64,000 nt of DNA from Alphaproteobacteria bacterium (lineage in GTDB: Bacteria; Pseudomonadota; Alphaproteobacteria; Bin95): NCBI GenBank assembly GCA_020638555.1, contig JACKII010000006.1:137140-201139 (forward strand), given 5' to 3'. Under the pieces are notes generated by a model. It saw only the letters and a list, made by a program, of their open reading frames with translations. It was not told the origin of the DNA and made no database searches. Positions 5,199 to 63,400 of the stretch are shown here, piece after piece (positions within the stretch are counted from its first letter, which is position 1; each line of letters starts with the position of its first letter). Both the position numbers and the translations under genes were made by a program.

Positions 5199-6065
5199 AT
5201 GAATCCCGACGTTCAAGCCGCCATGCCGGAACTGGAAAAATGGGTCGGACGTCAGCGCATCGTCGAGGACGAGATGGGACTGACATCGGTGCAACGCGCG
5301 GCCGCGACCATGAATGTCGATCCCGGCAGCTTCCGGAATGGGGATGCGGTGCCCCGGCAATGGTTCAACATGTTCTTTCCGGATATCTGCCGCCAGGACG
5401 ATATCGGCCCGGACGGCCACCCGAACAAAGGCGTCTTCCTGCCGCCGATTCCGTTGCCGCGCCGCATGGGCGCCGGGCGCCGGGTCAGGATCATGGGCAA
5501 TCTCGTGGTCGGGCAACCGGCGCGCAAGATTGCCGAGGTGGCGGCGATCATCCCGAAAAGTGGCCGGTCCGGCAATATCGTCATCCTGACCATGAAGCTG
5601 ACCTTCGAGAGCGGCGGCAAGACCATCGCCGTCGACGAATTCGATGCCATTTATCGCGAGGCGGTGCCGCCAGGGCAAAAATCGTCCACGACGGCGTTCC
5701 GCGAGGCGCCCACCGAGAGCGATTGGCAGGAAACGCACCATTTCAGCGAAGCGCTGAACTTCCGCTATTCCGCGGTGACGTGGAACGCCCATCGCATTCA
5801 CTATGACGCGGACTATACCCGCGACGTGGAGGGCTATCCGCACACGGTGCAGAATGGCGGCCTCACCATGCAGACGGTCACCGATGCGGCGTGCCGGCAC
5901 AATGGCGGCGTGATCGACGGTCTCGACGCCCGCCTGACCAAGCCGATCAATGTCGGCGATACCGTGACCATTCTCGGCCGGCACGAGGGGACCAACGAGG
6001 CTTGCTGGATCGCCGACCGGCACGGGCATTTGTGTGCCGAGATGACGGTGTCCTTCGGCGGCTGA
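5199..6065 (+). CDS. MaoC/hotdog-fold hydratase (HTD2 / mesaconyl-C4-CoA hydratase-like, FAS1-like dehydratase domain)
   Basis: ORF 5079..6065; preferred start is ATG 5199 (MNPDVQAAMPELEKW) with AAGGAGA RBS at 5182..5188. Hydratase-type motif FRYSAVTWNAHRIHYDADYTRDVEGYPHTVQNGGL. Confidence 0.7.
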   Translation: MNPDVQAAMPELEKWVGRQRIVEDEMGLTSVQRAAATMNVDPGSFRNGDAVPRQWFNMFFPDICRQDDIGPDGHPNKGVFLPPIPLPRRMGAGRRVRIMGNLVVGQPARKIAEVAAIIPKSGRSGNIVILTMKLTFESGGKTIAVDEFDAIYREAVPPGQKSSTTAFREAPTESDWQETHHFSEALNFRYSAVTWNAHRIHYDADYTRDVEGYPHTVQNGGLTMQTVTDAACRHNGGVIDGLDARLTKPINVGDTVTILGRHEGTNEACWIADRHGHLCAEMTVSFGG

Positions 6066-6194: not shown

Positions 6195-9100
6195 CTAAGT
6201 GGCGGTCCCTCCCGCGCCGTGAGAAGGCTCGGTCCCGGAGCGCGGCCCCGGCTCCCCGTCCTGGTCGGCGTTCGGGAAGAGCTTGTGGCCGCCGAAGATT
6301 TTCCGCTCCCGAATCCATTCGAACACCGCATAGAGCATCGGGATCATGAAGATGCCGAACATCGCCGAGGCCAACATGCCGAACAACACCGGCATGCCCA
6401 CGGCGAACATGCTGTCCGCACCGGGGCCTTGTGCGACCACCAACGGGATCAGGCCGGCGATGAAGGCGAAGCTGGTCATCATCACCGGGCGGAAGCGCTG
6501 GTGGGCGCCGGTGACCGCGGATTGCTGGATGCTTTGTCCTTCGGCCCGTCGCGCCAGCGAGAACTCGGTCATCAGGATCGAGTTCTTGGCGGCCAGGGCG
6601 ATCAGCACGACGATGCCGATCTGGGCGTAGAGCACGAAGCTCATATCGGCCAACTGAACGCCGATCATCGCCCCCAGCACCGCGACCACGACCGATAGCA
6701 GCACCGGGATCGGCACGTTCCAGCTTTCGTACAGCGCCACCAGAAAGAGGAAGGCGAACACGATCGCAAACCCGATCACGATCGGCGTTTGCCCCGCCGA
6801 CTCGACCTGCTCCAGGGCCTGGCCGGTCCATTCGTAGGCATAGCCGCGCGGAAGGTCCTTATTCGACAGGTCCTCCATCGCCGCGATGGCATCGCCGTCG
6901 CCATAGCCGGGGCCGGCACTGCCATTGATGGAGATCGCACGATAGTTGTTGTAGCGCACGATCGACCGGGCGCCGACCTCCAACGTGGCCCGCGCCACCG
7001 CCGACATGGGGACCATGGCGCCGGTGTTGCTCTTGACCTTGATGTCGTAGATCGAGTCGATGGTGTTGCGGAACTGCTTCTCGCCCAGCAGCCGCACGGT
7101 CCAGGTTCTGCCGAACAGGTTGAAGTCGTTGACGTAGAACCCGCCCAGCGTGGTTTGCAGCGCCTGGAACACATCGGACAGCTTCAGGCCCAGCACCTGC
7201 ACCTTGTCCCGGTCGATATCCAGCCGGACCTGGGGGGTCGACGCGTCGAAGGTGGAGAACACCCGTTGCAGTTCCGGCCGTTGGTTCGCCTGAACGATGA
7301 TGTTGCGCATGGTCGCCGCCATTTCGCTGGGCGATTGGCCGGTCAACCCTTCGAGGATGTACTCGAACCCGCCGGTCTGGCCGATGCCGGAGATGGCAGG
7401 TGGGTTCAGCGGCAGGAAATAGCCTTCCGTCAGGGGGGCGAGAGACCGGGTCAGGCGGTTCACCACGGCCGTGGCGTGCAGGTCCGGCGTGACCCGCTCC
7501 TCATAGGGCTTCAACCGGATGAACAGGATGCCGGAACTTGACGATGCGCCGCCGCCCAGGAAATCGAAGCCGGCCACCGAGACCACGGTCTGCACTGCCG
7601 GATCGGCGCTGACGATTTTCTGCGCCTTTGCTGCTGCGGCTTCCGTCCGGTTGAGCGACGCGCCGGGCGTCAGCCCGAACACCGCCATGATATAGCCCTG
7701 GTCTTCTTCCGGCAGGAAGCCGGACGGCGTCGTGGAGAACATATACAAGGTGCCGCCTGCCAGGGCAGCGACCAGCACGATGCTCATCACGGCGACGCGC
7801 ACCAGGCGGGCCACGACCCAGCCATAGCCGTCGCCGACCCGATTGATGCCGTTGGTGACGACGCGCATGATGCGGCCAGGATGGCCAGGCCGCAGGATGA
7901 GGGTGCAGAGGGCAGGGGATAGCGTCAGCGCGTTGATGGCCGAAATCACCATCGCCGCAGAAATCGTGATGGCGAACTGGCGGAACAACACGCCGCTGGA
8001 GCCGGGCAGGAAGGCGATCGGCACGAACACCGACAGCAACACCAAGGTGATGGCGATCACCGGGCCGGTGATTTCGGCCATGGCCTTGTGGGTCGCTTCG
8101 GCGGGCGAAAGGTGCGGTTCTTCCTCCATCACCCGTTCGACATTCTCGACCACGATGATGGCGTCGTCGACGACGATGCCGATGGCCAGGACCAAGGCGA
8201 GGAGGGATATGGTGTTGGCCGAGTAGCCAAACGCCAGCAGCACCGCAAAGGTGCCGATCACGGCAACCGGCACCGCCAGCAGCGGAATCACGGTCGGGCG
8301 CAGGCGGCCGAGGAAGACAAACACGACGATGGCGACCAGGATGAACGCTTCCACCAGGGTGTGAACGACCTTGTCCATCATCGCCGAGACGAACTCGGCC
8401 GTGTTGTAGATATAGGCGTAGGTTACGCCTTCGGGGAAGCGGGGTTTCAGATCCTCCAGGCGCTGGGCCACCGCTTTGGCGACCGCAACCGCATTGGCGC
8501 CAGGCGACAGATAGATGCCGATGGCGGCGACGGGGCGGCCCTCGAACCGGGCCGTGGTATCGTAGTTGGCCGCGTCCAACTCGACGCGCCCGATGTCTTT
8601 GATCCGGACCAGCGCGCCGTTGCTGTCGCTGCGAAGCACGATGTTCTCGAATTCCTCGGCGGAGGTCAGGCGGCCCTTGGTGGTGACCGTCAACTGCAGC
8701 CGCTGGTCCTTGCTGAGCGGCGCCGCACCGATCCGGCCGGCCGCGGCCTGGAGGTTCTGAGACTTGATCGCGGCGATGATTTCCGCACTGGAGAGCTCAT
8801 AATTGGCGAGCTTTTGCGGATCGAGCCAAATGCGCATGGAATAATCCTGCGCGCCAAAAATGGTAACATCGCCAACGCCGGGAACGCGCTTCAACTCGTC
8901 CAGGATCGAGATGGTGACGAAGTTGGAAAGAAACAGGTTATCGTGCTCGGGGTTGTTCGAATAGAACATGAACACCTGCAACAGGCTGGTCGAAACCTTT
9001 TTGATCGACAAACCTGTTGATCGAACTTCTTCCGGCAACTTGGTTTCAACCAGGCTGGCCCGGTTTTGCACGTTGACGGTGGCGATGTCCGGGTCCTGGC

Positions 9101-9392
9101 TCAGGTCGAAACTGACATTCAGGCGGTAGGAGCCGTCGCTTCCCGACGTCGACTTCATATACCGCATGCCCGAAACGCCGTTGATCGCGTTTTCGAGCTG
9201 CTGTGCCACGCTTTCTTCCACCGTTGGCGCATCGGCGCCGGAATAGGTGGCCGTCACCTGTACCGTTGGCGGGGCGATATCCGGGTATTGCGCGGTCGGC
9301 ATGACGGCGATCGCGATGGCGCCGGCCAGGGTGATGACCAGCGACACGACCATCGCCATGCGCGGACGTTTGATAAAGGTATCCGAAATCAT
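6195..9392 (-). CDS. RND multidrug efflux permease (AcrB/MexB, HAE1 family)
   Basis: 1065 aa. Canonical N-terminus MISDTFIKRPRMAMVVSLVITLAGAIAIAVMPTAQYPDIAPPTVQVTATYSGADA, with large periplasmic loops and a 12-TMS pattern. 11-nt gap to the upstream adaptor gene. Confidence 0.93.
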   Translation of the reverse strand: MISDTFIKRPRMAMVVSLVITLAGAIAIAVMPTAQYPDIAPPTVQVTATYSGADAPTVEESVAQQLENAINGVSGMRYMKSTSGSDGSYRLNVSFDLSQDPDIATVNVQNRASLVETKLPEEVRSTGLSIKKVSTSLLQVFMFYSNNPEHDNLFLSNFVTISILDELKRVPGVGDVTIFGAQDYSMRIWLDPQKLANYELSSAEIIAAIKSQNLQAAAGRIGAAPLSKDQRLQLTVTTKGRLTSAEEFENIVLRSDSNGALVRIKDIGRVELDAANYDTTARFEGRPVAAIGIYLSPGANAVAVAKAVAQRLEDLKPRFPEGVTYAYIYNTAEFVSAMMDKVVHTLVEAFILVAIVVFVFLGRLRPTVIPLLAVPVAVIGTFAVLLAFGYSANTISLLALVLAIGIVVDDAIIVVENVERVMEEEPHLSPAEATHKAMAEITGPVIAITLVLLSVFVPIAFLPGSSGVLFRQFAITISAAMVISAINALTLSPALCTLILRPGHPGRIMRVVTNGINRVGDGYGWVVARLVRVAVMSIVLVAALAGGTLYMFSTTPSGFLPEEDQGYIMAVFGLTPGASLNRTEAAAAKAQKIVSADPAVQTVVSVAGFDFLGGGASSSSGILFIRLKPYEERVTPDLHATAVVNRLTRSLAPLTEGYFLPLNPPAISGIGQTGGFEYILEGLTGQSPSEMAATMRNIIVQANQRPELQRVFSTFDASTPQVRLDIDRDKVQVLGLKLSDVFQALQTTLGGFYVNDFNLFGRTWTVRLLGEKQFRNTIDSIYDIKVKSNTGAMVPMSAVARATLEVGARSIVRYNNYRAISINGSAGPGYGDGDAIAAMEDLSNKDLPRGYAYEWTGQALEQVESAGQTPIVIGFAIVFAFLFLVALYESWNVPIPVLLSVVVAVLGAMIGVQLADMSFVLYAQIGIVVLIALAAKNSILMTEFSLARRAEGQSIQQSAVTGAHQRFRPVMMTSFAFIAGLIPLVVAQGPGADSMFAVGMPVLFGMLASAMFGIFMIPMLYAVFEWIRERKIFGGHKLFPNADQDGEPGPRSGTEPSHGAGGTAT

Positions 9393-9403
9393 GGGGGTCG
9401 GAC

Positions 9404-10555
9404 CTAGCCGTCTTTAGAGGGATTGCCGTCAGGGTCCGTCGCCATTTGCGGCGCAACCTTGCCGCCGGGACGGGCATTCTGGTGGCCGCTGACGATCACG
9501 CGATCACCCTTTTCGAGGCCGGATTTGACGACGATCACCGATCCGCGTTGCTCGCCCACGATCAGGCGTTTGATGCGCACCGTGTCATCCTTGTCGACGA
9601 CCAGCGCATAGGCGCCCTGCTGGTCCAGCAACAGGCCGGCCTGTTGCATCACCAGTTTCTCCTCCGGCGCCTTGCGGACAACCTCGACATTGACCAGTTG
9701 CTGGTCGACCAGCAACTGGTCCGGATTGGGGATGCTGGCGCGGACCTCGACCGAGTCGGTGGCCGCCGACGCCTGGACATCCGCGAACTGGATATGGCCC
9801 TTGTGGGGGTAGAGCGAGCCATCCCCCAGATGGAGTTGCACATAGACGCTGTCGGCACCCTCGCCGATTTTCTGCACCTGCAACAGCAGCCATTGCGGCA
9901 CCGGGAAGCGTACGAAGATCGGGTCTTGCGCCACCAGCATCACCAGGGGTCCGCTGGACGGCCCCACCAGATTGCCCACGGAATAGGCCGAACGGCCGAT
10001 GCGGCCGTCCATGGGCGCGCTGATCTTGGTGTAACTGAGATTCAGGCGCGCAGTGCCCAGGTCCGCCTTGCGGGCCTGAAGGTTCGCCTGCGATTGCGCC
10101 AGGTTCGCGGCGGCTTCGTCCAGGCTGGCCCGGGCGACGTTGTTGCGGCTCGCCAGCGCTCTCATCCGGTCGAAGGTTTGGTTGGCCAGTGTCACCGCGG
10201 CTTCGGCGCTGACGACATTGGCTTCGGCCTGTTGCTCCGCCAGTTGAAACGTGTCGGGTTCGATTTGGTACAGCAATTCGTCTTTTTTGACGTCCGCGCC
10301 TTCCTCGAACAGCCGCGCCTTCAAGAACCCTTGCACGCGCGCCCGGACTTCCACCTTGTCGATGGCTTCGACGCGACCGGAGAATGTGCGGGTGTTGGTC
10401 AGGTCCTTCAATTCGGCCGGCGCCACGACCACCGACGGCGGAGGCGGCGGCGCTGTCTGACTCTGCGCCTGCTTCTCATCGCAGCCCGAGAGCAACCCTG
10501 CGGCGAGTAACATCAAAACTGCCGGGACGGCAAAGCGCATTCTCGCTCTCTCCAT
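9404..10555 (-). CDS. RND efflux periplasmic adaptor (membrane fusion protein, AcrA-type lipoprotein)
   Basis: Lipobox LLSGC after a hydrophobic signal. Coiled-coil hairpin region (AEQQAEANVVSAEAAVTLANQTFDRMRAL, AQSQANLQARKADLGTARLNLSYTKISAPMDGRIG). Alternative start ATG 10540 (MRFAV) also has a good RBS. Confidence 0.9.
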   Translation of the reverse strand: MERARMRFAVPAVLMLLAAGLLSGCDEKQAQSQTAPPPPPSVVVAPAELKDLTNTRTFSGRVEAIDKVEVRARVQGFLKARLFEEGADVKKDELLYQIEPDTFQLAEQQAEANVVSAEAAVTLANQTFDRMRALASRNNVARASLDEAAANLAQSQANLQARKADLGTARLNLSYTKISAPMDGRIGRSAYSVGNLVGPSSGPLVMLVAQDPIFVRFPVPQWLLLQVQKIGEGADSVYVQLHLGDGSLYPHKGHIQFADVQASAATDSVEVRASIPNPDQLLVDQQLVNVEVVRKAPEEKLVMQQAGLLLDQQGAYALVVDKDDTVRIKRLIVGEQRGSVIVVKSGLEKGDRVIVSGHQNARPGGKVAPQMATDPDGNPSKDG

Positions 10556-54484: not shown

Positions 54485-54574
54485 GGATGGGTGGCAGAGT
54501 GGTTGATTGCACCGGTCTTGAAAACCGGCGTGCGTGCAAGCGTACCGTGGGTTCGAATCCCACCCCATCCGCCA
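54485..54574 (+). tRNA. tRNA-Ser (anticodon UGA)
   Basis: 90 nt: GGATGGGTGGCAGAGTGGTTGATTGCACCGGTCTTGAAAACCGGCGTGCGTGCAAGCGTACCGTGGGTTCGAATCCCACCCCATCCGCCA. Acceptor GGATGGG/CCCATCC, anticodon stem CCGGT/ACCGG with loop CTTGAAA, a long variable arm, and encoded CCA. Confidence 0.93.
54561..54574 (+). repeat. attL core (3' end of tRNA-Ser)
   Basis: CACCCCATCCGCCA, identical to 63387..63400. Confidence 0.8.
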
Positions 54575-54685
54575 GATTTCGCATGTATCTCATTGAAATA
54601 ACGCGATTTGGCTTAGGTCTGTCCGCCATTTCTTCCCCCAGAATTGCGCCCGATCAGGCGCCCCGTTGCTTATCGGTCGCGACGG

Positions 54686-55186
54686 CTAGTTGGTAACGGC
54701 TTGGTTGGGTGCGGCTTCTGCATCGGGTGCCACGTCGGCCGAATAATCCGCCAACGCCTGGAGCCGCACCGCCGCATTGGCGGCGCTCCGCAGGATCAAA
54801 AAGTGATCGTTGCGGATGGAGCCTTTGAGGCGGTCACACATCGGAGCCAAGAGGACCGCTGCGACCTCTGCGTCTTCCGATATGGACGCCATGGCGTTCT
54901 CGAATTCGGTCAATCGGTTGAACGCATTGGCTTTGGACTCTGCGTCGGCTGCAAGAGTGTTGCTGGCCTCGGTCCCGATCCGCTTAAAGGCTTCGCTTGC
55001 GGCGCTCAACTGTAGGTCCGTCGCCCGGTCGATGCGGCCGGGTGCGTCCATGATATGCCCCAGTATGAGCACGCCAAGTGCGGCTTCTACTCTGGCCTCG
55101 CCAGAACGTATCTTGAGGCGGTCGACGGCCGGTCCCCAATCACTGGGCTGCGATGCGGTCCCCATGTTGGTGTTTGTGTAGGGCAT
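54686..55186 (-). CDS. Hypothetical protein (166 aa, helical, no recognised domain)
   Basis: ORF with ATG 55186, divergent from the XRE gene across a 50-nt spacer. No motif that I recognise. Confidence 0.55.
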   Translation of the reverse strand: MPYTNTNMGTASQPSDWGPAVDRLKIRSGEARVEAALGVLILGHIMDAPGRIDRATDLQLSAASEAFKRIGTEASNTLAADAESKANAFNRLTEFENAMASISEDAEVAAVLLAPMCDRLKGSIRNDHFLILRSAANAAVRLQALADYSADVAPDAEAAPNQAVTN

Positions 55187-55217
55187 TGTCTCGGACTCCT
55201 GTTATGGATATGCTTCC

Positions 55218-55234
55218 GTCACTCTCAAGGTGAC
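55218..55234. promoter_or_regulatory. Palindrome GTCAC-N7-GTGAC (candidate operator) abutting the XRE gene start
   Basis: GTCACTCTCAAGGTGAC at 55218..55234 lies 2 nt before ATG 55237, within the 50-nt divergent spacer. Confidence 0.35.
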
Positions 55235-55236
55235 AT

Positions 55237-55485
55237 ATGAACAATAGCCGCAATCGAGACATGGTGACAAGTGCACAAATTCGAGCCGCACGCGGGCTCC
55301 TAGCCTGGACTGTCCGCGACCTTGCCGAAAAGGCGGGGGTGCACCGGAACACGGTGACACGCATCGAGACGGAGGCCACGTCGCCAGGCCATGCCCTCGC
55401 CTCGATCCGAGCCGCGCTTGAGGCCGGCGGCGTGGTGTTTCTGGACGCGAACGGGAACGGCCCCGGCGTGGCGCTGAGGCGCTGA
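55237..55485 (+). CDS. XRE-family helix-turn-helix transcriptional regulator
   Basis: 82 aa. SAQIRAARGLLAWTVRDLAEKAGVHRNTVTRIE is a classic HTH_XRE. Confidence 0.85.
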   Translation: MNNSRNRDMVTSAQIRAARGLLAWTVRDLAEKAGVHRNTVTRIETEATSPGHALASIRAALEAGGVVFLDANGNGPGVALRR

Positions 55486-55539
55486 GCCAGCCCCGGACGG
55501 GTGCACCATCAACCAGTTCGACAGAGAGGACCGCAGCCG

Positions 55540-55689
55540 ATGACGATCAACCAATTCCGCGGCCTGCTGTACCGTATCGCGAAATACAGCGGAGACATGC
55601 AGGCCCTGACCAGCAAGCGCCCCGGCGCGGTCCAGCGCAGGATCTGGCGCCGCATCCTCGGCAAGCTGCTTGGCCGGGCGTGGCGCTGA
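55540..55689 (+). CDS. Small basic hypothetical protein (49 aa)
   Basis: Within ORF 55501..55689. ATG 55540 (MTINQFRGLLYRIAKYSGDMQALTSKRPGAVQRRIWRRILGKLLGRAWR) has a GAGAGGA RBS. Coding status is uncertain. Confidence 0.4.
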   Translation: MTINQFRGLLYRIAKYSGDMQALTSKRPGAVQRRIWRRILGKLLGRAWR

Positions 55690-55946
55690 GGCGCTGAACG
55701 ACGGTCTTCCCCTTTGGCGTGCCGCGTCGGCGGTGAGCCGGGCGACACCCTTGGACCACTGCCGGGAAAACCATTCCAATTTTGGCATGCGCAAAAGTTT
55801 TGCCCCCCGCCGGTCCTGGCGCGGATCGCGGTAGACTTTCGACCACCCCCCACCGCCGCCGGGCGTGATCCTGGCGGGCACGCGCCTGAAATCGGGGCGC
55901 CCGTGTGAGCCGGTGGGAGGGGGGTATCTGATCTCTCGACCACCCT

Positions 55947-57323
55947 TCAAGGACCGGCGGGTCCCGACATTATGCAAAAGCGTAAGAAAACGAAGCTGCA
56001 AAAAAACCCGCCGGCAATTTTCGTACCGGCGGGCCTTGCTTTGACGTGCTGGCGGGGCCGGAGCCCCGCCCGCTCGCCTGGGTTATCCGTGACGGCGGTC
56101 ACGGTGTAGAACGCGCCGGATGCGCCACGGCCACATCGGCCCGCAGGGACGCAACGAAAGCGTATTGATGATTGGCTGCATAGGTCTCGCAACAGTTCGA
56201 CCTGAAGCCCTGTCCGCATGCCGATCATCAAGTGCTGGAAATTGCCGGCGAAGATCGTGGATCTGTCTGAGCTGGTGCCGCCATCGGTCGGAACGGCCGT
56301 GGTGGTCAACTGTGGGATCGCGCTCAGCGCTGCCGGGGCCATGAGCGGCTGGCCGGTCGAGTCCGTGAGGCCGGCCAGGGTGCCCTCATCGCGCGGGTGC
56401 AGGATCGCGGCTGTTACCGGTCCCGCATTCGCGGTCAGGATGGCCGTGCGACCGGCCAGCAGCGGCCCATAGTTGGCCAGGTCGGCGCCCAGCGCCGCCG
56501 TGCCGATGCCCGAGGTATTGGCGATGCCTCTCGGCTCGGGCGCGGTGCCGGAGCCCAGCAGCGCCACCCGGTCGAGTTCCGTCGCCAGGGCCGCGGCCAG
56601 AAGCTGCGGCAGTGCGGTTTCGAGGTTCAACGAGTCCTCGATCAGCTCGCGGCTGACCTTGACCAGAACCGCCAGGCTGCGCGGGGTGAAGACGACAGCG
56701 CGAAACGTCGGGTCGCTCTCCGCAACCGCGGCATTTTCAGAGCGCCAGGCCGGCGCCGGATCGCTGGCCACCGCCGCGATGGAGTTCGTGGCGCTGGTCA
56801 GCGGCACGGTGCGGGCGCCGGCCTGGACGGTCACGCTCGCCGCCCGAAGATTGTCGAGCAGTTCCGCCGAAACAACCGCCGGAACGCTGTAGCCGCCGGC
56901 GGAATCGCTGCCCTCGGCAAGCGCGCGCCGCTCGGTCTCGGTTTTTCCTCCGAGGATCATCGACCGCAAATAGGCGCCGGCGCTCAGGCCGCGATAGGGG
57001 TCGGGCTGGTGCTTCGCCGCCCAGTCGAGCATGCGCTGTTCCGGCGCCAGGCCGAAGGGCGGCGCAGCACCGCGCTCCCACACGCCGCCGCCGGCGCTGC
57101 CGCCGTCATCCTCGCCGCCGGTCACGTCGGCATAGGGCGGCCGGCGCATTTTCGACAGATCGGCCGAGAGCCGGTCGCGCTCGGCCATCGCGGCATCAAA
57201 CCGGGCCTCGATTTCGGCCGCGCGTTCCTTGGTCGTCGCGGCCTGGCCCATTTCATCGGTCAGGGCTCGGCATTCGGTGTCGAGCGCCTGGATATGGTCG
57301 ACGATTTTTTTTTCGTCGGTCAT
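55947..57323 (-). CDS. HK97-fold phage major capsid protein with frame-disrupted 3' end (possible pseudogene or indel error)
   Basis: ORF 55947..57590; preferred start is ATG 57323 (MTDEKKIVDHIQALDTECRAL, a coiled-coil delta-like N-terminus). The capsid core reads GGYSVPAVVSAELLDNLRAASV ... LAVLVKVSRELIEDS ... HPRDEGTLAGLTDSTGQPL ... MIGMRTGLQVELLRD. After ~56185 the conserved tail YAANHQYAFVASLRADVAVAHPA is readable only in the +1 frame. The track frame runs on through a terminator hairpin. Confidence 0.8.
   Translation of the reverse strand: MTDEKKIVDHIQALDTECRALTDEMGQAATTKERAAEIEARFDAAMAERDRLSADLSKMRRPPYADVTGGEDDGGSAGGGVWERGAAPPFGLAPEQRMLDWAAKHQPDPYRGLSAGAYLRSMILGGKTETERRALAEGSDSAGGYSVPAVVSAELLDNLRAASVTVQAGARTVPLTSATNSIAAVASDPAPAWRSENAAVAESDPTFRAVVFTPRSLAVLVKVSRELIEDSLNLETALPQLLAAALATELDRVALLGSGTAPEPRGIANTSGIGTAALGADLANYGPLLAGRTAILTANAGPVTAAILHPRDEGTLAGLTDSTGQPLMAPAALSAIPQLTTTAVPTDGGTSSDRSTIFAGNFQHLMIGMRTGLQVELLRDLCSQSSIRFRCVPAGRCGRGASGAFYTVTAVTDNPGERAGLRPRQHVKARPAGTKIAGGFFCSFVFLRFCIMSGPAGP
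56000..56033 (-). terminator. Rho-independent terminator downstream of the capsid gene
   Basis: Minus strand reads CCCGCCGG-11 nt loop-CCGGCGGG followed by T7 (plus-strand A-tract 56000..56006; stems at 56007..56014 and 56026..56033). Confidence 0.75.
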
Positions 57324-57456
57324 GTGATGTGCTCCATGCCGCCCCTTTGGCGGCGTTCGGAGTTGATCAGCTTCCGGCTTTCGCCTTCGGCCTACCTCCC
57401 GAAATTCGGCGTGTCGGGGTGTCACGCTATGCCCCGAGGGGCATTCCATGTGCCGG

Positions 57457-57807
57457 TCAGCAGCGGCCGGCGGGTGTTTCATCGATCGCCGCGGCCATCG
57501 CCACCAGCGCCTTGGCTGCCGCGGGGCCTTTGACCTTCGCGTAAAGCTGCAAGCCGGAGACAAGCCAGGCGGTGACGAAGACTTCGGCATCTCCGCCGGC
57601 TGCGTCTGCTGCCTTCACGGCATCCGCCCAAAGTTCGCGTGCAATCCGAATTTGTTCATGATCTGCATTATACATGAGCTTTGCTCGTATTCCTATGACG
57701 TGGTGGTGTGTTGCGCCGGCATCGGTGGTCAGTCGGCCGGCGGCGTGCATGCGCGCCTCTGCCGCCGACGCTCGGGCTGGCGTCCGGCACATCGCCAGCG
57801 CTGCCAT
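57457..57807 (-). CDS. Hypothetical protein (116 aa; alternative 72-aa form from ATG 57675)
   Basis: ORF between the iteron array and the capsid gene. The C-terminal part MYNADHEQIRIARELWADAVKAADAAGGDAEVFVTAWLVSGLQLYAKV looks protein-like. RBSs for both starts are weak. Confidence 0.45.
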   Translation of the reverse strand: MAALAMCRTPARASAAEARMHAAGRLTTDAGATHHHVIGIRAKLMYNADHEQIRIARELWADAVKAADAAGGDAEVFVTAWLVSGLQLYAKVKGPAAAKALVAMAAAIDETPAGRC

Positions 57808-57877
57808 TTCCGCTTGATCGCGGGGTTGCCCGCCATCGCGTGCCGGCCCGGCTGGGTTTGGTCCATGTGATTTCCTG

Positions 57878-58069
57878 TGGGACCAGTGGGACAGGTGGGA
57901 CCGGGTTGTTTTTGCTGGTAGATTCCAGTCCCACTATGTGCGGCCCGTGTGGGACAGGTGGGACCGGTCGAGGGCATGTGGTCCCACATGTCCCACCGCC
58001 ATGGACCACTGTGGGACCGAGAAAACCACGCAATATCAACGTGGTCCCACCTGTCCCACCTGTCCCACC
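57878..58069. repeat. Iteron array of 12 GTGGGAC heptamers (6 forward, 6 reverse); candidate replication origin/initiator-binding region of the element
   Basis: Forward copies at 57878, 57887, 57896, 57950, 57959 and 58012. Reverse copies (GTCCCAC) at 57929, 57982, 57991, 58045, 58054 and 58063. Spacing within clusters is 9 bp. All six forward/reverse pairs are mirror-positioned about 57973.5. Confidence 0.8.
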
Positions 58070-58089
58070 GATATTCGCGGGTGGCAGTG

Positions 58090-59820
58090 TCAGTCATCAC
58101 CCGCACCCATGATCGAGGCCGTGACCGCATAGGCGCGGGGCCGGCCATGCTTGAGGCTCATGCGACGGGTGAGGTGTCGCCCATCGCCTCCTTCGAGGTA
58201 GCCGGCGTCATGAAGATATCGCGCCGCCCGCTGTGGATCGGCGCCGCGGTGAACCTCGCGCCAGGCGTCGGCGGCGACGTAATAGGTTTCTCCCTCGCGC
58301 CACCCGGCCCGGTTCGGGATCGCGGGCCGCGGGTCGCCGCCGGGGTCCAGTCGCTCAAAGCGCGCATCGCCATGGGTGACCAGGAACGCGCGCACGCGCT
58401 CGATGGCCTCGCGGGCTTCGGCCGGCCCGGCACCGCCGCGGCCGTCGATCCACAGGCCGAGAATATGCATTGCAGCGTCATGCGCCGCCCCTCGTGGCCA
58501 CCCCGTGAGATCGAAGATGGTCGCCAGTTCTCCGGCGGCGGCGATCAGGCCCAGGCGAGCGGCGGCCCGCTGTGTCTGACCATCTGCCTCGACGCCATGC
58601 AATTCCACCGCGTCACGGCGAAACGTCTCCATCGCCTCGCGGGCCGTCGCTTTCGCCGCCTCGGGGTCGTCGAGAAATTTCGCGACGAATGCCGGCCCGG
58701 CCGTGCCGTGGGCAGTGGCGGTTGTCGCCCGAACGCGGTCGGCAAATGCTGCAGCGCTCTCCGAGCCATGCAGATGGTCGAATGCGCCATGTTGGCCGGC
58801 GTCGGCCGACACATCGAGAAGGCGCACATGCTGCCCGGCATGGGTGCGGCCGCCGGCCTCCGCGATCTTGTCTGCCAGACAAATTTCGCCACTGGACAAG
58901 ATCATCGTGCGCCATCGCTTTTGCGGCCGGGCTGCGCCCGTTCGATCCGCCCGCGCTTTGCCGATGCCGTTGGCGATCATATAGGCCGCTTGTGCCGCCT
59001 CTCGGCCGGAGACTTCGCCCATTTCGTCCAGGGCCAGCACCGAGCCGTTGCAGGCCGTCGCCAGGGCCTCCAGGCCGTTGGCGGTCGCCCGCCAGCTTTG
59101 CAGGAAAGCGGGGCCGCCCCAGACCGACGCCGCCGCCCGCTGGATCGTGCTCTTGCCGCTGCTCGATGCGCCGCGAAGATGCAGGCCGCCGCCATCGAGG
59201 CCAAGCGGTTCGAGCAGCGGCCCGGCGAGGGCGAGCGAGACGGCGGCGACCATCAGCGGATTGCCGACGCAGAGCGCCGCGACCTGGCCGCGCCAGTCCG
59301 CGAGATCACCGGCCGCCACCATAGCCGTCGCGGCGCTGCTGATCGTCTCGGCCTGAAACACGGCGCGCTCGTCGCCGATCACCTCGCCACTGCCGAGAAC
59401 GAAGCTGCGGCAGGTCTCGTCGGACCATCCCAGCCGGTCGACCGATAGGGCGCGGTCCTTGGGCCGCCAGCGCTGTAGCAGGTCGGCGAGCGCATATCGG
59501 GCGGCCGGGCCAGGCGCGATGTAAAGCCCAAGGTCCAGCAGCTTGGCGCGCAGTTCGGCGCCGTCGCCCGCGAACATGCGTGCGGGGATCGCCCAAACAT
59601 GGGCATTGCCGTCCGAGTCGATGACTTCCACCAGCCGGCCCCATCCCGCGCCGGATCGGTCGCGGGTCAGGGCCAGAACGTGAAGTTCCGAGCAAACAAG
59701 GGGGGCGCGGCGGTTGCCTTCATCATCTTCGACGATACGATGAATGTCGCCGTTCGGTCGCGCCTCGAAGCCAGTGGGCAGTGGCGAAAAATTGATCCTG
59801 GTCACGTTGGATGCCGTCAT
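58090..59820 (-). CDS. DUF927-type replicative helicase/ATPase (SF3-like, P4 alpha C-terminal-like)
   Basis: ORF 58090..60030. Preferred start is ATG 59820 (MTASNVTRINFSPL), forming an ATGA overlap with the primase stop. Walker A LRGASSSGKST and Walker B-like VLALDEMGE. Confidence 0.8.
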   Translation of the reverse strand: MTASNVTRINFSPLPTGFEARPNGDIHRIVEDDEGNRRAPLVCSELHVLALTRDRSGAGWGRLVEVIDSDGNAHVWAIPARMFAGDGAELRAKLLDLGLYIAPGPAARYALADLLQRWRPKDRALSVDRLGWSDETCRSFVLGSGEVIGDERAVFQAETISSAATAMVAAGDLADWRGQVAALCVGNPLMVAAVSLALAGPLLEPLGLDGGGLHLRGASSSGKSTIQRAAASVWGGPAFLQSWRATANGLEALATACNGSVLALDEMGEVSGREAAQAAYMIANGIGKARADRTGAARPQKRWRTMILSSGEICLADKIAEAGGRTHAGQHVRLLDVSADAGQHGAFDHLHGSESAAAFADRVRATTATAHGTAGPAFVAKFLDDPEAAKATAREAMETFRRDAVELHGVEADGQTQRAAARLGLIAAAGELATIFDLTGWPRGAAHDAAMHILGLWIDGRGGAGPAEAREAIERVRAFLVTHGDARFERLDPGGDPRPAIPNRAGWREGETYYVAADAWREVHRGADPQRAARYLHDAGYLEGGDGRHLTRRMSLKHGRPRAYAVTASIMGAGDD

Positions 59821-60725
59821 GCCGCCACCTCGCGGCGGAGCAGGTCGTTGAAGTCCGATCCGGCAGGCGGTTGCAGCAGCGTCACCTCCCAGGCCCAGCC
59901 GTGCGCACGGTCCGCCAGGGCGTAGGCCGCGCGCCGGCCGGCCTGATCGCGATCCAACGCGACGACCAGGCGACCAGGAGTCCTCGGCAGTTTCACCTGC
60001 TTCATGTTGGAGCTGCTGATCGCTGCCCAAATCCGAGCGTCGGGCTCGACGAAGCCGCCGGGAATAGCAGACAGGGCGGTTTCGATGCCTTCGGCGATGA
60101 CCAACGGTCCGCGCCCAACGGTCAGGCGCACGGCGCCTCCGCGGACCGGGCCAAGCGCTCGCTTCTGGTCATTGCTGCCCACAGGCGCTTTGCCGGTGCC
60201 GTCGCGGTCCAGATAGATGCGGTGGACCGCAAAGCCATCGCCGCCCTGGACCAGCGCGACGACGGCGGGCCAGCACATTTTCGACGGCGTGTGCCAGCAG
60301 GCCGACAGGTATCGAAGCGTGCCGGGCAATTCGCAGTCGATGCCGCGAGTTCGCAGATATCGCTCGCCCAACGTGCCATGGATCGGCCTGGCCTCACGCC
60401 AGATGCGTTCGGCGAAGCGTGAACTCTCTGCCCGGACGGCCTGGCGCTCGGCGTTGAGTTGGGCGACCGCCACCGGGTCGGGTGCTGCATGCGAGCCCGG
60501 CGCGACGCCAGCCGCCGCCAGGACATCGCGGAAGGTGCACTGGCTTTTCTTGCAGTGCAACAACAGCCGGCCACGGCTATCGGCCAAGGTCAGGGCGTTT
60601 TGATCGCGGCGCCGCTCCGGCTGGCAGACGGGGCAAGGGCAGGTGCCGTAGTGGCCGTACCAGCGGCCGCCCAGCGCCTTGGTCAGGGATTGGGCGTCGG
60701 CTCGTTCGAGAATGGCGGTGGTCAT
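59817..60725 (-). CDS. Zinc-ribbon + Toprim domain DNA primase-like protein
   Basis: Zinc ribbon YGTCPCPVCQPERRRDQNALTLADSRGRLLLHCKKSQC. Toprim motifs PLVIAEGIETALS and VVALDRDQAGRRAA. Confidence 0.8.
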   Translation of the reverse strand: MTTAILERADAQSLTKALGGRWYGHYGTCPCPVCQPERRRDQNALTLADSRGRLLLHCKKSQCTFRDVLAAAGVAPGSHAAPDPVAVAQLNAERQAVRAESSRFAERIWREARPIHGTLGERYLRTRGIDCELPGTLRYLSACWHTPSKMCWPAVVALVQGGDGFAVHRIYLDRDGTGKAPVGSNDQKRALGPVRGGAVRLTVGRGPLVIAEGIETALSAIPGGFVEPDARIWAAISSSNMKQVKLPRTPGRLVVALDRDQAGRRAAYALADRAHGWAWEVTLLQPPAGSDFNDLLRREVAA

Positions 60726-60910
60726 CGGCCGCCCTCCCGATCCGTCGCGGATGTGGTGCCGCAGCCCGTCTCTAGCGCCATCGTCTCGTGGCTTGCATTT
60801 GTCACCACGGCCGCTACATTCAGGGCTTCCGCAGCAATCGCCCCCTCATGATTGCGTAGCCCCGCGCCGGTCTGACCACCGGCCGGGGCGTTTCTTTGTC
60901 CGCCTCCCAT
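60722..60910 (-). CDS. Small hypothetical protein (62 aa), doubtful
   Basis: ATG 60910 lies directly after the alpA stop, and the stop overlaps the primase start (ATGA). The sequence is Gly/Ala-rich, the RBS is weak, and no motif was recognised. Confidence 0.3.
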   Translation of the reverse strand: MGGGQRNAPAGGQTGAGLRNHEGAIAAEALNVAAVVTNASHETMALETGCGTTSATDREGGR

Positions 60911-60912
60911 GA

Positions 60913-61131
60913 TCAGGCTGCCTTGTCGGCTTCGCGGCTGGCGATCCACGCTTCAATGTCTTCGCGCCGCCACCCAATGGCGCGCGCACCGAGCTTGATG
61001 GGCGCAGGGAACTGCCCAGCCTTTACTTGGTCGTAAACCCAAGAGCGCCCCATGCCGATGGCGGCTAGCACCCGGGGAAAGCGCCAAACTTCATTGTGCA
61101 TTGTTAATGCCTCTCGCGTGTTAGTGGACAT
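60913..61131 (-). CDS. alpA: AlpA-family phage regulatory protein/excisionase (HTH_17)
   Basis: 72 aa. RFPRVLAAIGMGRSWVYDQVKAGQFPAPIKLGARAIGWRREDIEAWI is the AlpA/Xis-type winged HTH signature. Confidence 0.85.
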   Translation of the reverse strand: MSTNTREALTMHNEVWRFPRVLAAIGMGRSWVYDQVKAGQFPAPIKLGARAIGWRREDIEAWIASREADKAA

Positions 61132-61201
61132 GCGAAAGGTAGAAAGCCACCAATGGCAGCGACTAAGGCAAATTTCCGGAAAATTTAGCGCCGACCGCGA
61201 A

Positions 61202-61960
61202 TTATCCTAAGGTCTTCTCGGATCGTCCTCTGTGATATGGATTTTTTTTGTCGGCATCTGATTTTTCGTACCATTCAGTTACTTTGAGCACTAACCACTT
61301 CTGCAAAGCATTGTCTGTCGCATGTTTTTCTTGGTGCATAATTTCTTTAATATAGTCTCTCCGTTTTTCTGACTGTTTTCTTCGTGAACTGACGCTTTCA
61401 CTTCTGCCGGAATCGCTCCATCCGTATCTTTTCATTCCCAATAGAATTGACGGCTTGTATTTCGTTCGCCAATGCCATTCCTCTGTAAGAGCGCCTAAAG
61501 CAATAGCGAAATGCATCTGGCCCGCGCCCCCTGCATTCCTTCGCAGGTCCTCGATTGTTTCGATTGCCCTTGCCGCATACCACGGATCGGAGAACGGTTC
61601 CGAGAAGTTCCTCGCAAATTCGGTCACATGGGCGAAACCGAACCCACCTTCTTTGATCTTCTGAATGGGCGGGCAGTTTGGATCGCTGGTTTGCCACCAA
61701 GTGTTGCGGTCCTTGTATACCACACGCTCTTGCCCGTGCGGGAGGCCCGCCGCCTTCAATACCGAGTGGCACTCAGCCCAAAGCGCGTCGATCTCGCTCC
61801 AGATTGTTGCTAGGGCCAATTCTCTCGCCTCGAACGACTCTTTTACGATCCCCACCTTCTGTTGAATTGGCATGTCGTCCCAATCGGGCTCTTGCCAATG
61901 GCCCAAGCGGGTTAATTCATCGCCCCCCTTGTCGATCCATTCTCGTTTTTTATCAGTCAT
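61202..61960 (-). CDS. Hypothetical protein (252 aa), low-GC cargo gene translationally coupled to int
   Basis: ATG 61960..61958 overlaps the int stop (ATGA). The 3' half (61201..61500) is about 41% G+C by hand count. Trp/Lys-rich, with no recognised domain. Confidence 0.7.
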   Translation of the reverse strand: MTDKKREWIDKGGDELTRLGHWQEPDWDDMPIQQKVGIVKESFEARELALATIWSEIDALWAECHSVLKAAGLPHGQERVVYKDRNTWWQTSDPNCPPIQKIKEGGFGFAHVTEFARNFSEPFSDPWYAARAIETIEDLRRNAGGAGQMHFAIALGALTEEWHWRTKYKPSILLGMKRYGWSDSGRSESVSSRRKQSEKRRDYIKEIMHQEKHATDNALQKWLVLKVTEWYEKSDADKKNPYHRGRSEKTLG

Positions 61961-63243
61961 ATAGAGGCCCTCAGTTGAACAAGTTTCTCGGCCCCCTTCC
62001 CCTCCAGGAATCGGCCCCAGGCTTCTAGCATCCCGCGCCGCCGCTCCAGCATGTCAGATCGGCGGTAGGCTCTTTCGACTTCCGTGCCGACCGTGTGCGC
62101 GAGAGCGATTTCCGCCATGTCGCGCGGGTATCCCCGCTCATCCGCCCAATCGCGGAATGTCGAGCGTATTCCGTGAGGTACAGCGGGCCGTTTGCTTCGG
62201 GGGTCAAGATACCCTTCCCTCCCCGCGTCGGCCTCTGCCTTGTGAATGCGGCGCGTGACGGCCGACAGGCTCATATCCGAGAGGGGTCCACCGCGCGGGG
62301 CAAAGAACACGACCTCCGAACCCTCCAGTCGCGGCAGCCGGGACAGCAATGCGACGGCCTCTTGTGTCAGGGGGACTCGATGCTCGCGGCCCGCCTTCAT
62401 GCGTTCCGCTGGGATGGTCCAAACTGCGGCGCTTGGGCTGGGGCCTGGCGATCCAAGATCGACCTCACCCCATACCATGCCCCGCACTTCGCCGGATCGG
62501 CATGCGGTCAGCGTCAGGAATTGCAGCGCCTGTGCTGCCATCCCTGCCCTGCCCTGTAGGTCTTCCCACCAGCGCGGCATGTCGGCCAAAGCGACGGCCG
62601 GGTGGTTTCCCGCTCGTGCTACCCTGGCGGGCTTGGGCAGGACTTCCGAAAGGTTGCCCTTCCATCGCGCCGGGTTGTCGCCCTCCCGATAGCCGGCAAC
62701 GGTTGCCCAGGATAGCACCGCCTCGATGCGCCCTCGAAGCCGCGAGGCCGTCTCGGTCTTGGTCGACCAGATCGGCTCAAGGACACGCAGAATATCGCTC
62801 ATGGTGATCGACCGGACGGGCAATTCCCCTAGCGCCGGCCGGGCGTAGGTGTCCAAGGTGGAGCGCCATTGCTTCTGGTGTTTCTCGTTGCGGAATTCAT
62901 CCAGCTTCGAGGCCAGATACTTTTCCACCGCCTGCTGAAAGGTCAGGGCATCCCGCTGCCTCTGCTTTTCCGCCAGCGGGTTTCCGCCGCCTCGAACGAT
63001 CCGCTTATTCTCGAACGCCGCTTCGCGCGCATCGGCCAGCGACACCAGAGGCGGGCTGCCAAGGCCAAGTTCCCGCCGCTTCCCATGAATGGTGAGCCGC
63101 TGCACCCAGAACCGCGAGCCGTTCGGTTCGACCCGCAGGTAAAGGCCGAACCCGCCGCCGTCATGATGCTTCCCCGGCCCTGCGGATTTCACCCTCGCGG
63201 CGGTAAGCGTCTTGGCTGCCCGTCGTTCCATCGCCCTGGCCAT
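61957..63243 (-). CDS. int: Tyrosine recombinase, P4-type integrase with DUF4102 arm-binding N-terminus
   Basis: HDGGGFGLYLRVEPNGSRFWVQRLTIHGKRRELGLG is DUF4102-like. Catalytic blocks TACRSGEVRGMVW, HGIRSTFRDW and ALAHTVGTEVERAYRRSD. Confidence 0.92.
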   Translation of the reverse strand: MARAMERRAAKTLTAARVKSAGPGKHHDGGGFGLYLRVEPNGSRFWVQRLTIHGKRRELGLGSPPLVSLADAREAAFENKRIVRGGGNPLAEKQRQRDALTFQQAVEKYLASKLDEFRNEKHQKQWRSTLDTYARPALGELPVRSITMSDILRVLEPIWSTKTETASRLRGRIEAVLSWATVAGYREGDNPARWKGNLSEVLPKPARVARAGNHPAVALADMPRWWEDLQGRAGMAAQALQFLTLTACRSGEVRGMVWGEVDLGSPGPSPSAAVWTIPAERMKAGREHRVPLTQEAVALLSRLPRLEGSEVVFFAPRGGPLSDMSLSAVTRRIHKAEADAGREGYLDPRSKRPAVPHGIRSTFRDWADERGYPRDMAEIALAHTVGTEVERAYRRSDMLERRRGMLEAWGRFLEGKGAEKLVQLRASI

Positions 63244-63386
63244 TCTTCCTCCATTTCTTCCCCCTCAATGACGCGGATTTGAGCGTATCAGAGCGGACGA
63301 CAATGGACAAGAGAAGTCAAATAACCGCTTATTTTCAATGGGATTTGTGAACATTCGCGAACATCGCCGGATTCGACGATGGCGGA

Positions 63387-63400
63387 CACCCCATCCGCCA
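63387..63400 (+). repeat. attR core (duplicated tRNA-Ser 3' end)
   Basis: CACCCCATCCGCCA, identical to 54561..54574. The upstream GGATTCGA partly echoes the tRNA T-arm GGTTCGAA. Confidence 0.8.

Follow-up and report, generated by a model that had tools for sequence, protein, structure and literature searches.

The GTGGGAC array at 57877-58068 of the 64,000-nucleotide stretch of DNA analysed here (the window) most probably serves as the origin of replication for an integrated, PICI-like satellite island of 8.8 kb. We put the probability of this assignment, an origin of the SaPIbov1/PICI type, at about 0.85, as judged from sequence comparison, a structure model and analogy with islands whose origins are known. 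The array is a known kind of origin in a new instance, in an alphaproteobacterial island, and it shows one departure, a 16-bp GC-rich centre. An earlier note on this DNA had proposed an element origin with double-hexamer loading of the helicase. This proposal was supported by the homology of the helicase to SaPIbov1 Rep and by the same position and layout of the origin.

The exact heptamer GTGGGAC occurred 15 times in the window, and 12 of these copies fell within the array, where 0.04 sites would be expected by chance in 192 bp from the base composition. The remaining 63.8 kb contained just three further copies, and no second cluster was detected in the 64-kb window even when one mismatch was tolerated. 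The sites on the + strand start at 57877, 57886, 57895, 57949, 57958 and 58011, and those on the - strand (GTCCCAC) start at 57928, 57981, 57990, 58044, 58053 and 58062. Neighbouring sites of a cluster start exactly 9 bp apart. The six forward (F) and six reverse (R) sites follow the order FFF-R-FF / RR-F-RRR, that is, 3-1-2 / 2-1-3. For all six mirror pairs, the start of one site and the end of its partner add up to 115945, which places the dyad centre at 57972.5 with base-pair exactness. The two 26-nt arm spacers (57902-57927 and the reverse complement of 58018-58043) match at 13 of 26 positions, and 42 of the 108 non-site positions of the array are self-complementary. The site nearest to the helicase gene ends at 58068, leaving a gap of 21 nt to the stop codon (58090-58092).

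Most of this description had been given in the earlier note. Its twelve iterons, 6 + 6, were found again, each coordinate being 1 lower than was given there, and its 9-bp spacing and site order were both reproduced by the recount. The exact dyad symmetry that it described held for the six mirror pairs, but its values of 115947 and 57973.5 did not. The arm spacers read as they had been quoted and do differ from each other, and the distance of 20 nt between the helicase stop and the array was corrected to 21 nt. The features of the origin and the island are listed in Table 1.

Table 1. Positions of the origin and island features in the window
Feature	Position	Strand	Remarks
attL core CACCCCATCCGCCA	54561..54574	+	3' end of tRNA-Ser(tga), 54485-54574
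Further unknown frames	54686-56001		gene status not established
HK97-type major capsid gene	55947..57323	-	probable start MTDEKK at 57323
Small unconserved frames	between array and capsid gene		
Whole iteron array (putative ori)	57877..58068	.	12 x GTGGGAC, 3-1-2 / 2-1-3, dyad 57972.5
Distal outer triple	57877..57901	+	end 10 nt from possible ATG at 57866 with AGGAA ahead
Distal arm spacer	57902..57927	.	26 nt, 46% GC; contains the array's least stable 20-mer, 57906-57925
Single inverted site, distal arm	57928..57934	-	
Inner pair, distal arm	57949..57964	+	
Centre CGGTCGAGGGCATGTG	57965..57980	.	16 nt, 69% GC
Inner pair, helicase-proximal arm	57981..57996	-	
Single site inverted relative to its arm, helicase-proximal	58011..58017	+	
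Helicase-proximal arm spacer	58018..58043	.	26 nt, 46% GC; among the island's least stable duplex; bears conserved T-tract
T-tract of helicase-proximal spacer	58022-58025		AAAA on + strand
Helicase-proximal outer triple	58044..58068	-	three sites, 9-bp spacing
Rep, DUF927 MCM-like self-loading helicase (predicted)	58090..59820	-	576 aa; Pfam DUF927, E = 8e-74
Primase, DUF7146 + Toprim_3	59817..60725	-	stop overlaps helicase start
Small ORF	60722-60949	-	
AlpA-family regulator/excisionase	60913..61131	-	
Unknown ORF	61202-61960	-	
Tyrosine integrase	61957..63243	-	Arm-DNA-bind_3, Phage_int_M and Phage_integrase domains
attR core	63387..63400	+	exact copy of tRNA 3' end

An exact 14-nt repeat marks both ends of the island, and one of its copies forms the 3' end of tRNA-Ser. 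The second copy, at 63387-63400, sets the extent of the island at about 54575-63400 (8.8 kb). A 28-nt imperfect repeat (54622 and 63247) was also considered as an att candidate and was dropped in favour of the exact tRNA 3'-end repeat. The host genes flanking the island are metG and tatD on one side and those for cytochrome oxidase subunits on the other, and the integrase sits at the island end remote from tRNA-Ser. An Rfam search matched the tRNA alone.

Beside the lone HK97-type capsid gene, no portal, protease or terminase gene was recognisable in the island. This single-capsid content matches cleanly neither a classical PICI, which has no structural genes, nor a cf-PICI, which has a full capsid and packaging set. 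The open reading frame of the capsid gene extends over 55947-57590 (-); its first 89 or so codons look non-coding, and its last 45 or so residues resemble read-through. The 10.2-kb Pseudomonas "phage" vB_Pae_U10 (L081) likewise carries an integrase, regulators, a primase, a DUF927 helicase and one capsid gene, and no obvious array was found past its helicase.

A profile built from the window helicase together with 27 homologues matched PDB entries 8tch (6e-30) and 5dgk (4e-27). The library title of the former is [quoted passage not shown] and the latter is SCCmec Cch. The AF2 model of the helicase had a mean pLDDT of 87.8, and a Foldseek search with this model returned 8tch (TM 0.63/0.73) and 5dgk as the top folds (range, 0.63-0.74), followed by MCM helicases. 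As judged from the profile matches and the similarity of the modelled fold to 8tch and 5dgk, the window helicase belongs with SaPIbov1 Rep and Cch in one family of self-loading helicases. Its C-terminal 80 or so residues form a helix-helix-wing in the AF2 model, with the winged helix at about residues 500-567. For the exact protein, no record was found in the protein look-up.

In SaPIs, the origin lies directly 3' of rep and consists of 6 to 12 iterons of 5 to 6 nt. These are split evenly between the two flanks of an AT-rich region, and on either flank two or more of them have opposite orientations (PMC9371898; PMC7581432, citing Ubeda et al. 2007 and 2012). The C-terminal winged helix of Rep reads the iterons, and loading of two Rep hexamers, one per side of the origin, has been proposed (PMC9371898; PMC7581432). 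In Gram-negative PICIs, the origin is likewise located directly 3' of rep and has two iteron sets, and the rep-ori fragment of EcCICFT073 maintains a temperature-sensitive plasmid (PMC6092414). In the SaPI and PICI literature, Rep and ori are together sufficient for replication. For the origins of SaPIs and E. coli PICIs, the central AT-rich region is said to be constant and to be where the DNA melts.

A SaPIbov1-type origin was read from viral contigs coding for the 8tch sequence, among them the contig of locus L085 (L numbers are our locus labels), which is 100% identical over residues 26-355. After the rep stop, L085 has three copies of GTACCC, one of GGGTAC and two of GTACCC, followed by about 83 nt of AT-rich sequence and a second half with two copies of GGGTAC, one of GTACCC, and GGGTAC with degenerate copies. 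This layout is the 3-1-2 / 2-1-3 plan of the window. Three more SaPI lineages, with the iterons AGTCCCC, AGTACC and GTACAC, showed the same plan. The distal triples of L085 and L123, about 270 to 300 nt past the rep stop, look mosaic, with GGGGAC in the GTACCC-type origin and two copies of GGGTAC in the AGTCCCC-type origin. This suggests recombination between origins of differing specificity.

The window shares with SaPIbov1 a homologous DUF927/MCM-like initiator-helicase with a primase gene upstream of rep, an origin that begins a few tens of base pairs past the rep stop, a number of iterons within the range of 6 to 12 in two opposed sets, and outer triples that face inward. The iterons of SaPIbov1 are GTACCC at a spacing of 9 to 11 bp, whereas those of the window are GTGGGAC at exactly 9 bp, and the distal triple of SaPIbov1 is degenerate, whereas the symmetry of the window is exact. 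The primase of SaPIbov1 is an AEP (PMC7581432) and that of the window a Toprim protein, so that the module is homologous in part. The centre of the SaPIbov1 origin is AT-rich and about 80 bp long, but that of the window is short and GC-rich; an AT-rich region between the iteron sets is the feature of the SaPIbov1 type that the window lacks.

The island also resembles the Gram-negative PICIs (EcCICFT073; Fillol-Salom et al. 2018, PMC6092414). It has an integrase with its own att sites, the gene order int-alpA-pri-rep-ori and unidirectional transcription, all of its genes being on the - strand, and its origin is directly 3' of rep with two iteron sets. The host differs, being an alphaproteobacterium. 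Enterobacterial DUF927 elements from E. coli (L083) and Klebsiella (L084) have a different layout, 2-5-2-3, with strongly AT-rich arm spacers. The iteron is GGGTTAC in the former (1630-1910) and TGGTTCA in the latter (5450-5730).

When one genome per species was searched with the helicase alignment, 80 loci were obtained, with a helicase identity of 36 to 64%. In 46 of 78 loci, a position-blind search of the whole locus (about 13 kb) placed the densest cluster of hexamers 0 to 300 bp past the helicase stop, and in several further loci the cluster was adjacent after mis-set stop codons were allowed for. About one-third of the related loci had no clear array at the threshold used. The iteron varied by lineage (GTCGGAC, CTGGGAC, CTCGGAC, (T)GGGGACA, GGGTAAC, GGGTTAC, CGGTTAC, TGGTGAG, GGGTGACA and GTGTTCC). 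About 20 loci, spread over Alpha-, Beta- and Gammaproteobacteria, had the 3-1-2 / 2-1-3 layout, exact or one site short, and this layout was seen past DUF927 helicases with at least 10 different iteron sequences. Outer triples facing inward at a spacing of 8 to 10 bp were nearly universal among the relatives and were their most constant feature. Thus, in the comparison of homologous elements that the earlier note had recommended, the layout recurs while the iteron sequence changes.

For L003 (GTCGGAC; helicase 63% identical), all 12 sites were located at the exact offsets of the window, with a non-site identity of 33% compared with 26% expected from composition. The closest relative found, L285, has a helicase that is 70% identical, the GTGGGAC iteron, similar arm spacers and a centre of about 115 nt. 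This length results from an extra site and a partially duplicated arm spacer (CACATTGAAATCAAACGACTTTTCCG) at 3800-3960. The only genes common to the relatives were int, alpA, primase and helicase. The genes downstream of the array were not shared while the helicase was constant, indicating that the array belongs to the helicase and not to the cargo. The small frames downstream of the window's array had no similarity in any related locus.

In many relatives, an open reading frame with the motif FEERAAIxExDGGxxRxEAE was observed directly past the origin (L003, about 7930-8070; L030/L044; L286, 7742-8368). It has no Pfam family on record and is absent from the window's island. One related island (L286/L287, 10924-13731) is located about 2.5 kb from a cas1-cas2-cas4-cas7 cluster, possibly by coincidence.

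The Pseudomonas satellite phiAH14b (KU708005) was packaged experimentally in helper capsids (PMC4936722). Like the window's island, phiAH14b (L082) carries an integrase, AlpA, a Toprim primase and a DUF927 "RNA helicase," and its GGGGAAC iterons are arranged as 3-1-2 / (1)-1-3 in a 310-bp unannotated gap past the helicase, after gene p16 (9299-9528). It differs in its size of 16.8 kb, its spacing of 8 to 9 bp and its 56-nt centre at 38% GC. The origin is not mentioned in the paper describing phiAH14b (PMC4936722).

A metagenome scan for GTGGGACNNGTGGGACNNGTGGGAC gave origin-like matches in L229, L243 and L224 only. Most of the other matches were one-directional runs with a 9-bp period and without a nearby helicase, and they were set aside as probable coding repeats. 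Such runs, with up to 14 GTGGGACNN units, were observed in L238, L233, L218, L172 and other loci. The GTGGGACNN runs, which can mislead pattern searches, are probably three-codon repeats of coding sequence and have nothing to do with origins.

In the alignments, residues 543-562 of the helicase (window numbering) were the most variable part of an otherwise conserved C-terminal domain, and this segment sorted by iteron class. The covariation test was confined to helicase pairs whose ATPase cores share at least 85% identity. The identity of the wing segment was 70% for pairs with the same iterons (n = 14) and 49% for pairs with different iterons (n = 16), the pairs being phylogenetically nonindependent. 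The adjoining helices showed no difference, with identities of 74% and 72%, respectively. The extreme case was L036, whose core is 91 to 92% identical to that of the GGGGACA group and whose wing is just 24 to 29% identical, with another iteron. The tracking of iteron class by the wing of the predicted winged helix is suggestive and makes this domain a candidate reader of the sites.

Other known systems were compared with the window. Like P4, the island is a satellite with an integrase, a Vis/AlpA-like protein and its own primase-helicase for short repeated sites. P4 requires two separate cis sites, ori and crr. Its alpha protein is a fused primase and D5-type SF3 helicase, whereas the DUF927 helicase and the Toprim primase of the window are encoded by separate genes, and a single iteron cluster was found in the 64 kb. 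The earlier note had named P4 ori/crr, along with plasmid origins, as known cases of short repeated initiator-binding sites; the nearest system is SaPIbov1/PICI and not P4. In the iteron plasmids (pPS10, RK2, R6K and F), repeated initiator-binding sites also mark the origin. These are direct repeats of 17 to 22 bp, and a winged-helix Rep recruits the host DnaB. The window differs in having mirrored sets of 7-bp sites, an initiator that would itself be the helicase and no RepA-type gene.

The large T antigen of SV40 and E1 of the papillomaviruses are self-loading hexameric initiator-helicases, and mirrored short sites assemble their double hexamer. In the core origins of these viruses, melting takes place in flanking elements and not in the centre. 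Their DNA-binding domain is N-terminal and unrelated, they have 4 sites compared with the 12 of the window, and they are viruses of eukaryotes. The analogy of SaPI Rep with this type of system has also been drawn previously (PMC7581432).

The centre of the window's array (57965-57980) has an average duplex stability. The least stable 20-mers of the array, 57906-57925 and 58020-58039, are in the arm spacers and rank at the 98th and 97th percentiles of instability in the island, respectively. The GC content of the arm spacers is 46%, compared with 64% for the region. Short GC-rich centres were also found in L003, L007, L028, L067 and L068, and AT-rich centres were found in L058, L059 and L082. 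In the window, L001, L003, L007, L011 and L024, exactly 26 nt separate the triple from the single site; elsewhere this spacer is mostly 22 to 27 nt long, with a minority near 48 to 50 nt.

A TTT run 3 to 9 nt from the inner end of the spacer, by the single inverted site, was present in 22 of 32 arms (from the window, L030, L047, L059, L063, L079 and other loci), compared with 4.0 ± 1.7 (maximum, 10) in shuffled sequences, indicating that the spacer is not free sequence. The Beta- and Gammaproteobacterial lineages share the spacer consensus CCAyGCGGGTTTG. The earlier note had claimed that selection acted on the geometry of the sites and not on the arm sequence. This claim is supported by the recurrence of the layout with at least 10 iterons and by the offsets and non-site identity of L003, with the correction that the T-tract shows the spacers to be not wholly free. 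The T-tract could be a melting start, a primase site or a bend. Inspection of the spacers for DnaA boxes and IHF sites gave poor matches to the consensus.

One tentative explanation for the GC-rich centre is that this Rhodobacterales lineage dropped the central AT-rich region. Opening would then start at the two mirrored 26-bp T-tract spacers, each between an outer triple and a single inverted site, and each spacer would be wrapped and opened by the Rep hexamer of its own half-origin, six winged helices matching six sites. Melting in the arms would resemble the flank melting of SV40 more closely than the model for SaPIs, in which the centre melts. The 9-bp spacing amounts to about -51 degrees per site, which is near the 60-degree step of a six-fold ring and could reflect this geometry. 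We consider this explanation rather doubtful.

The array might instead act mainly as an operator or promoter for the downstream (capsid) genes, bound by an AlpA-like regulator or by Rep as a repressor. Dyad-symmetric sites are typical of operators, the last site is 10 nt from a possible ribosome-binding site and ATG (57866) of the next frame, and the array of L003 likewise adjoins GGAGG-ATG. However, a promoter scan of 57400-58300 found no sigma-70-like promoter, and 12 sites over 192 bp far exceed the needs of an operator. Moreover, the genes past the array differ completely from one relative to the next, whereas the array remains next to the helicase, and the iteron class tracks the helicase C terminus. 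A main role as an operator is unlikely, and a secondary regulatory effect of the array, such as the promoter/operator role raised in the earlier note, is possible.

The long imperfect palindrome could also form a DNA or RNA hairpin or a cruciform, serving as a single-strand origin, terminator or processing site. The single strand of 57870-58075 does fold at -66 kcal/mol (z = -9.1 versus shuffles), but almost all of the pairing comes from the mirrored sites, with 13/26 spacer positions and 42/108 non-site positions complementary. In the relatives, the centres are noncomplementary and range from 12 to 115 nt, so that no stem is conserved, and no compensatory changes were seen in the spacers. Neither a T-run terminator nor an Rfam match was found, and a function as a hairpin is very improbable. 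The same low probability applies to a packaging site (pac or cos), to which the small subunit of a terminase would bind, or a centromere for partition, with a protein of the ParB/ParR type as its ligand. Arrays of short repeats are found at sites of these kinds too, and the one in the window does border a structural gene, but no terminase or partition gene was recognisable in the island, and across the relatives the array co-occurs with the helicase and with no packaging gene.

For an origin of the SaPIbov1/PICI type, the following mechanism is proposed. The DUF927 protein encoded directly upstream would be both the initiator and the replicative helicase, and its C-terminal winged helices would read the 7-bp iterons. 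One hexamer may be positioned by the set of six sites (3 + 1 inverted + 2) that makes up a half-origin, and the mirrored half-origins would thus place two hexamers in opposite orientation. The duplex would be melted and the two rings would separate, with the adjacent Toprim primase priming synthesis.

The GTGGGAC array does not overturn the current understanding of such origins. With this assignment, an intergenic repeat would gain a function, and the 8.8-kb tRNA-Ser island would be a self-replicating, probably phage-dependent element, of a kind that has been little studied in alphaproteobacteria. The rule that a DUF927 helicase is followed by inward-facing iteron triples (3-1-2 / 2-1-3) locates origins from Staphylococcus to Proteobacteria and also reveals classes of origin specificity. 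The near-random spacers, the base-pair-exact spacing and the GC-rich centre are natural variants with which questions of the positioning and melting by MCM-like helicases may be addressed.
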